The translations under genes and the position numbers were made by a program. Below are positions 62,979 to 63,300 of a DNA stretch of 64,000 nt, piece after piece. The DNA is from Escherichia coli O127:H6 str. E2348/69 (GTDB taxonomy: Bacteria; Pseudomonadota; Gammaproteobacteria; Enterobacterales; Enterobacteriaceae), in assembly GCF_000026545.1 (NCBI RefSeq), contig NC_011601.1; one strand, written 5' to 3'. The notes beneath the pieces are model-generated. The model made no database searches. It was not told where the DNA came from and worked only from the letters and a program-made list of their open reading frames with translations. Position 1 is the first letter of the stretch. Every line of letters starts with the position of its first letter.

Positions 62979-63159
62979 TCGCTCTCCTTATTAAGGAGCG
63001 CAACACCAGCATCTTACCCTTACACTGCCTGTCGATACTGGTTTACGTATGTTGAGTCGCCATGTTGCACTCCGGATCAGAGCACTACCTGCGGCACCAC
63101 CCGTCCGGTAGCCAGGACTTGAAATTGGTTCGATCCGGCGCAACTTCCCAACAGTCAGG

Positions 63160-63211
63160 ATTATAAATCTCATTATCTTAATTGCAACGGGGTCCGTAGG
63201 TGGTTATAATT
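63160..63211. promoter_or_regulatory. Back-to-back sigma70-like promoters sharing a palindromic -35 TTGCAA
   Basis: Plus strand: TTGCAA (63183-63188), 17-nt spacer, TATAAT (63206-63211). Minus strand: same TTGCAA, 17-nt spacer, TATAAT (complement of 63160-63165), placing the toxin transcript start ~174 nt upstream of the zorO ATG. Confidence 0.55.
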
Positions 63212-63217
63212 CGTTCG

Positions 63218-63300
63218 TTGGGGCGCCATGTTGCATAATCAGTAACTTAACGTCAAAGTTGTAAATAAAAGAACCTGCCTCACCAGCAGGTTTTTTTATT
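63218..63300 (+). ncRNA. Candidate Orz-like antitoxin small RNA (~83 nt)
   Basis: Starts downstream of the plus-strand TATAAT and ends at a terminator (AACCTGC-CTCACCA-GCAGGTT + T7, 63273-63299); its 5' region (63225-63236 CGCCATGTTGCA, within a 19-nt near-match) repeats 63058-63069 in the toxin 5' UTR, so the two RNAs can pair. Confidence 0.5.

Follow-up and report, generated by a model that had tools for sequence, protein, structure and literature searches.

A zor-orz type I toxin-antitoxin module in Escherichia coli O127:H6 E2348/69 with one palindromic hexamer as the predicted -35 box of two divergent promoters

A small toxin gene and a small RNA (sRNA) gene lie back to back at the end of a 64,000-nucleotide (nt) stretch of Escherichia coli O127:H6 str. 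E2348/69 (contig NC_011601.1, assembly GCF_000026545.1); this whole stretch, at its full length, is referred to as the window. With high confidence, the pair is a single copy of zor-orz, a chromosomal type I toxin-antitoxin module of Escherichia, transcribed from two back-to-back sigma-70-type promoters, and a single palindromic hexamer, TTGCAA, is the predicted -35 box of both. Its appearance here is a rediscovery of a published, experimentally characterised locus, whose promoter hexamers, transcription starts, pairing site and specificity rules are already known. The shared -35 box plausibly couples the two promoters by steric exclusion, a proposal that goes beyond the evidence and is weighed below against other uses of the hexamer. 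Positions 62400-64000 were read, and every coordinate was verified by script.

Identity of the locus

The 471 bases surrounding the divergent pair match E. coli ATCC 11775 at 100%, and related sequence was found in 5,231 of 5,426 complete E. coli genomes. In ATCC 11775 the identical region lies between yehK, which is frameshifted, and yehL, and the RefSeq annotation there is empty. By that annotation the module occupies the yehI/yehK-yehL intergenic region, and the zor-orz genes of strain EDL933 were likewise found between yehI and yehL (Fozo 2010, PMC2887945).

Both products are recognisable. The plus-strand RNA matches Rfam family OrzO-P (RF02083) with 91.5 bits against a gathering score of 60, covering the full model (1-76) at 63224-63297. 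The open reading frame (ORF) 62978..62889 encodes a hydrophobic product of 29 amino acids (aa), as expected of a Zor toxin, and O157:H7 has an identical protein in its first (zorO) copy. The initial annotation, made from the sequence without database searches, had named zorO and an Orz-type antitoxin, and these matches bear the names out; that reading recovered a real sRNA/toxin module that carries no RefSeq annotation in this genome. No NCBIfam model matches ZorO or ShoB.

Two divergent promoters and one hexamer

The promoter elements are listed here with their state in the 13 distinct modules that were compared.

63182..63187, strand-symmetric: palindromic TTGCAA, predicted -35 box of both promoters, at -35..-30 relative to both starts; invariant in 13 of 13 modules
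63205..63210, plus strand: orz -10 box TATAAT, after a 17-bp spacer (63188-63204); invariant in 13 of 13 modules
63160..63165, minus strand: zor -10 box TATAAT (ATTATA on the plus strand), after a 16-bp spacer (63166-63181); invariant in 13 of 13 modules

TTGCAA occurs only once in the region read. The initial annotation rightly described a hexamer that is its own reverse complement, but its coordinates, 63183-63188, read TGCAAC, and the true ones are 63182-63187. The distance of 17 nt to TATAAT that it gave for each strand is correct for the plus strand, but the minus strand has 16. The two -10 boxes are separated by 39 bp (16+6+17), and each start (63152 and 63217) is 32.5 bp away from the middle of the palindrome, which puts 65 bp between the starts.

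Both genes carry the published combination of a TTGCAA -35 box and a TATAAT -10 box. Across 2,439 loci, "-35 (TTGCAA)" was given for both Zor and Orz with 99.4% conservation each, and "-10 (TATAAT)" with 100% and 99.8% (mSystems 2024, PMC11264685, Table 3). Predicted -35/-10 elements are also marked in the figure legends of Wen 2014 (PMC3919570) and Wen 2017 (PMC5397157). Because only 39 bp lie between the -10 boxes and they enclose a single TTGCAA, both published -35 boxes must be the same hexamer. The shared -35 box is therefore not new, as the hexamer had already been published for both genes.

In a consensus scan both promoters scored 10/12, with a perfect -10 box and only 4/6 matches at -35. 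The scan found an extended -10 (TGn) in neither promoter, which rules out that such an element makes the -35 box dispensable. An alternative zor -35 box at a 17-bp spacing would be GTTGCA, which has 3/6 matches and is poorer than TTGCAA at 16 bp. The flanks differ in composition, with 86% A+T upstream of the orz -35 box (63160-63181) compared with 29% over the 17 bp preceding the zor -35 box. This richness on the orz side may favour the antitoxin, but it is given little weight because the bias is not retained in all modules.

Transcripts and the toxin leader

The predicted transcripts and their parts, including the ribosome binding site (RBS) and 5' untranslated region (UTR) of the toxin gene, are as follows.

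62840..63152, minus strand: zor toxin mRNA, ~313 nt, with a 5' UTR of 174 nt; the 3' end is approximate, just past the hairpin at 62844-62867
62984..62989, minus strand: zor RBS AAGGAG, at +164..+169, in a predicted local hairpin with arms at 62981-62990 and 62992-63001
62889..62978, minus strand: zor ORF, 29 aa, MDTLTQKLTVLIAVLELLVALLRLIDLLK, identical to the O157:H7 zorO-copy protein
63217..63297, plus strand: Orz antitoxin sRNA, ~81 nt, with a small 5' hairpin and a 12-bp terminator hairpin plus U-run; Rfam RF02083

A start at 63152 leaves exactly 174 nt of leader ahead of the ATG at 62978, in line with the ~174-nt UTR first predicted and with the 174-nt UTR and the RBS at +164..+169 of zorO (Wen 2017, PMC5397157). 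The RBS position here is exact when counted from 63152, and its hairpin is a prediction. On the other strand, the sRNA spans 63217 to ~63297-63300 (81-84 nt) and is closed by the 12-bp hairpin and T-run, which agrees with the terminator-bounded RNA of ~83 nt that had been proposed; its fold energy is -21.5 kcal/mol (z = -2.7).

The initial annotation expected starts near 63152 and 63218. The first matches the mapped published +1, but the Orz start maps to 63217, because only with +1 at the G of GTTGG does the specificity triplet V1 (+9..+11) of O157:H7 OrzO read GAA. In EDL933 the starts of all four RNAs were determined by primer extension and sRNAs of ~85 nt were seen on northern blots, with Orz levels dropping in stationary phase (Fozo 2010, PMC2887945); zorO transcripts of ~310 nt and ~280 nt have been reported (Wen 2014, PMC3919570). 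Start mapping, northern blotting and compensatory mutation, the experiments that had been suggested from the sequence, are thus already published for the EDL933 homologue (PMC2887945, PMC3919570).

The 174-nt zorO leader prevents translation until ~28 nt are removed, which exposes the +73..+102 EAP (standby) region, the OrzO binding site (Wen 2017, PMC5397157). In the predicted fold of the full-length leader in the window, the first 14 nt pair with the +83..+102 region and the RBS sits within a hairpin. At an unremarkable z-score of -1.4, this fold is consistent with the published model without lending it independent support. Both divergent RNAs (63137-63152, minus; 63217-63235, plus) open with GUUGGG and have GUUGC soon after. 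Since the zor 5' end pairs in the predicted fold with the region that Orz targets, it seems to imitate the antitoxin seed from within the mRNA; such a mimic would fit the delta-28/EAP model, where it was not found stated in these terms.

A coding role for the Orz region was rejected. No ORF there is conserved across the module types, the overlapping ORFs are spurious, and insertions and deletions distinguish the O, P and window types.

Pairing between sRNA and toxin mRNA

The two pairing partners were located as follows.

63217..63236, plus strand: Orz 5' seed; nt 1-6 paired (one G:U), nt 7 mismatched, nt 8-20 paired (12 Watson-Crick pairs and one U:G); V1 is GCC
63051..63070, minus strand: zor target region, +83..+102, within the published EAP (standby) region +73..+102

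The 64-kb window holds exactly two copies of CGCCATGTTGCA (63058-63069 and 63224-63235). As both are on the plus strand, the plus-strand sRNA is complementary to the minus-strand mRNA. These copies lie within a 19-nt near-match (63051-63069 versus 63217-63235) whose 2 differences are one G:U wobble and one mismatch; the 12-nt exact match within a 19-nt near-match that was first noticed between the sRNA 5' region and the toxin UTR was thus reproduced when its coordinates were checked by script. Over Orz nt 1-20 and zor +83..+102 there are 12 exact matches, and 19 of 20 positions are paired. By the measure of Wen 2014 this amounts to 19 pairs with one internal mismatch, two G:U pairs being counted among the pairs.

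Pairing of this kind has been characterised in EDL933. The site was placed "72-92 nt upstream" (Fozo 2010, PMC2887945), and zorO-orzO was shown to be a true toxin-antitoxin pair, in which Zor overproduction is toxic and OrzO represses by base pairing (Wen 2014, PMC3919570). The first 18 nt of OrzO carry out this repression, which is RNase III-dependent and Hfq-independent, and the V1 triplet (+9..+11) sets its specificity, as compensatory mutations confirm (Wen 2014, PMC3919570).

The seed differs by type at nt +5..+11, reading GGGCGCC in the window, GTACGAA in the O type and GAACACG in the P type. Across these three types the variable positions of seed and target change together. Each Orz pairs best with the target of its own type, at -31 to -34 kcal/mol versus -16 to -27.5 kcal/mol for the other types.

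Conservation of the architecture

To compare the architecture, modules were gathered without a promoter anchor, from E. coli matches spread over the identity range and from a scan with the 21-nt Orz terminator, taking one genome per species. The terminator scan added E. whittamii (two copies) and two further Escherichia species. Outside E. coli the exact 21-nt anchor was found only in these three other Escherichia species, and distant relatives with an altered terminator would escape it.

Each of the 13 distinct modules, drawn from E. coli and the three other species, has the arrangement ATTATA-16-TTGCAA-17-TATAAT. None of the 18 hexamer columns varies, versus 20 of the 33 spacer columns (Fisher p = 1e-5). 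As far as these alignments show, selection on the promoter architecture and on the pairing is purifying and co-varying. Of the 5,426 complete E. coli genomes, 238 carry the exact Orz variant of the window, each in one copy only.

Some strains retain only part of the module. In a K-12-like orz-only locus (L003, 1480-1545, compared with window 63122-63152), homology on the zor side stops ~28-31 nt into the zor leader, so that its end nearly coincides with the delta-28 processing point of the zor mRNA. The zor promoter is fully intact in orz-only strains though the toxin gene is lost. In E. coli S1-INA-02-A (L011, 1501-2340) only the zor-promoter side remains (query bases 270-346), followed by IS1; yehL-yehQ are missing and yehR is next. 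Here a deletion associated with an insertion sequence has removed orz.

A possible coupling of the two promoters

In the most probable mechanism, Porz (TTGCAA-17-TATAAT, plus strand) would start at 63217 and Pzor (TTGCAA-16-TATAAT, minus strand) at 63152, with the same 6 bp acting as the -35 box of both. Pzor would give an mRNA of ~313 nt with its RBS locked in a hairpin and its 5' end folded onto +83..+102; as shown in the homologue, such a full-length mRNA would be poorly translated until ~28 nt are removed. Porz would give an sRNA of ~81 nt, the first 20 nt of which would pair with the leader at +83..+102, an interaction that in the homologue stops translation, with RNase III-dependent decay as the consequence. 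Specificity would be set by the seed at +6 to +11, V1 (+9..+11) included, and by the matching target positions.

The initial annotation took the shared -35 box to imply that the promoters are mutually coupled, a step that goes further than the data. We infer that sigma region 4 of only a single polymerase would sit on the hexamer at a time and that, with starts 65 bp apart, the polymerase footprints would overlap widely. Given single occupancy and overlapping footprints, the two promoters should sterically exclude each other. The optimal 17-bp spacer would let Porz win more often, which would help to keep the antitoxin in excess. In its full form, the proposal is that the coincident -35 box leads to mutually exclusive initiation and anticorrelated bursts of toxin and antitoxin, that the 16/17 asymmetry biases the outcome towards the antitoxin, and that rare runs of Pzor produce pulses of toxin in single cells; this is put forward tentatively, as possible but doubtful. 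Divergent transcription can also stimulate a neighbouring promoter through negative supercoiling, so any coupling may be of either sign.

A literature search found no paper that discusses or tests promoter coupling in zor-orz, and according to a 2025 review zor-orz regulation remains to be deciphered. If true, the proposal would add a transcription-level layer to type I toxin-antitoxin control, for which no test was found in the literature. Coupling would also make zor-orz a compact natural case of promoter competition setting the toxin-to-antitoxin ratio, and would be relevant to type I toxins that escape repression in rare cells.

Weighing the alternatives

The alternative that survives best accepts the locus as zor-orz and takes the hexamer as the -35 box of one promoter only, for which Porz, whose spacer is 17 bp, is the likeliest candidate. 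Its partner would fire mainly from a perfect -10 box, and the palindrome would be a by-product of tight packing with no meaningful coupling. Each -35 box has only 4/6 matches next to a perfect -10 box, the zor-orz papers call the -35 boxes "predicted" (Wen 2014, Wen 2017) with no -35 mutagenesis found there, and bidirectional promoters elsewhere show no competition at basal activity (PMC12825309). Yet TTGCAA is invariant while the adjoining spacers vary, it lies at exactly -35..-30 for both mapped starts, and the 16/17 spacing holds in all 13 modules. TTGCAA is moreover the only hexamer with a 5' TTG on both strands, and hence no other would offer both polymerases the -35 bases that matter most. 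We therefore consider use by a single promoter unlikely.

A dimeric regulator that binds the palindrome and controls both promoters is much less probable still, and we regard it as very unlikely. In its favour, the hexamer forms a perfect dyad midway between the starts, and the stationary-phase fall in Orz (Fozo 2010, PMC2887945) means that some regulation exists. However, the conserved dyad extends over only 6 bp (ATTGCAAC in the window versus ATTGCAAT in the O type), which is short for a dimer site, and no regulator of the locus was found named in the zor-orz literature, whose 2025 review leaves regulation still to be deciphered.

A chance meeting of promoter-like hexamers in AT-rich intergenic DNA, to which a loose-threshold consensus scan of a 2-kb stretch might seem to point (2 sites versus 3.0 +/- 2.1 in shuffles), is refuted by conservation and published transcript mapping: from the hexamer counts across the window (20 TTGCAA, 11 TATAAT, 6 ATTATA) only ~3e-6 such double arrangements are expected per 64 kb, the architecture is present in 13 of 13 modules from four Escherichia species, and in the homologue both RNAs were detected and their starts mapped (PMC2887945).

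The reading of the locus as a zor-orz module whose promoters share, and may compete for, one -35 box has several points against it. With a perfect -10 box, one of the two promoters may need the -35 box little, and conservation of the palindrome cannot tell selection by one promoter from selection by both. The 13 modules are related by descent, and the Fisher p thus overstates their independence. Polymerase competition has been shown for overlapping divergent promoters with a common -10 box only at raised activity, and none was seen at basal activity (PMC12825309). Start sites, toxicity and repression are carried over by analogy from the EDL933 zorO-orzO homologue, which is ~90% identical. The layout of 6 pairs, a mismatch and 13 pairs is not among the mutants of Wen 2014, in which a mismatch at +9 abolished OrzO repression (PMC3919570). 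The 6(1)13 layout of the window copy does recur naturally, in zorP/orzP.

Other features of the window

The Orz terminator hairpin (63263-63301) is preceded by an A-run and followed by a T-run, and the terminator scan also calls it as a terminator on the minus strand. This hairpin may halt transcription in both directions between orz and yehL.

In the window yehK is split into two ORFs at 62391-62707, and the ATCC 11775 record gives a frameshift for yehM, further downstream, as well. An imperfect-palindrome repeat lies at 62707-62830, with yehK on one side and the zor terminator on the other. Rfam V_AS5 matches this repeat weakly (28.4 bits versus 96), and the repeat resembles an ERIC/IRU element. 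It is missing, along with zor, from the K-12-like orz-only locus.

A mobile-element origin of the module was rejected. The plasmid matches are to chromosome-sized or very large records, the two phage matches are to unannotated 1.5-kb records, and no sign of mobility was seen. The phage records, OR845919.1 and OR851665.1, contain partial zor-orz-like sequence at ~80% identity and are probably pieces of host DNA. The Salmonella phage label that one of them bears is odd, given that zor-orz was otherwise seen in Escherichia only.

Three further RNA features were found in the window. A Sib RNA at 2511-2653 (plus strand; Rfam RF00113, 138 bits) is the second type I antitoxin of the window and implies an ibs-sib toxin-antitoxin locus. 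The CyaR/RyeE sRNA at 17560-17645 (plus strand, 100.7 bits) and a TPP riboswitch at 42192-42288 (minus strand, 71.2 bits) both exceed their Rfam thresholds.

Comparison with known systems

The closest relatives are zorO-orzO and zorP-orzP of EDL933. The window copy shares with them the yehK-yehL site, a 29-aa toxin identical to ZorO, the 174-nt UTR, the RBS position, the promoter hexamers with 16/17 spacing, the terminator and the position of the pairing site. It differs in being a single copy, whereas O157:H7 has a tandem pair, and its overall identity to the O157:H7 copies is ~90%. Its V1 triplet is GCC, compared with GAA in OrzO and ACG in OrzP, which makes it a third seed variant; the mismatch at +7 is found likewise in the P type. 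The window copy may represent the third published type, zorQ/orzQ, or a subtype of it.

Bidirectional promoters with a pseudo-symmetric -10 box (PMC12825309) resemble zor-orz in that a single element is read in either direction and a polymerase bound one way should keep out another. They share the -10 box, however, whereas zor-orz shares the -35 box and has separate -10 boxes, 39 bp apart. Separate divergent promoters are not classed as bidirectional in that work (PMC12825309), and zor-orz, with -10 boxes at 63160-63165 and 63205-63210 and starts 65 bp apart, lacks the single shared -10 box of that class.

The shoB-ohsC system is similar in layout, with divergent toxin and sRNA genes and an sRNA whose 5' end pairs with a long toxin leader. 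The 5' ends of OhsC and Orz are alike (TTCGTTGG..TG.TGCAC), and TGCACTCC is present in both targets. The zor leader (62976-63105) and the shoB leader (L012, 349-476) align in pairwise blastn at 63% over 136 nt, with an E-value of 0.005 that comes from a tiny search space, and the blocks CCCTTACA, TGCACTCC and CAGAGC are common to the two leaders. The Rfam model ohsC_RNA (RF02495) scores 31.6 bits on Orz against a gathering score of 50, which leaves Orz outside that family; an nhmmer profile of 12 zor-orz modules did not find the shoB-ohsC locus, and BLASTP showed no similarity between the Zor and ShoB proteins. Weak and mixed as these sequence comparisons are, a distant common origin of zor-orz and shoB-ohsC is possible.

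The promoters set the two systems apart. The shoB-ohsC starts are ~144 bp apart, as inferred from promoter-like sites and sequence similarity, versus 65 bp in zor-orz, and the predicted -35 boxes of shoB-ohsC lie ~72 bp apart and are not shared. The coincident -35 box thus belongs to zor-orz and is not a general property of this class.
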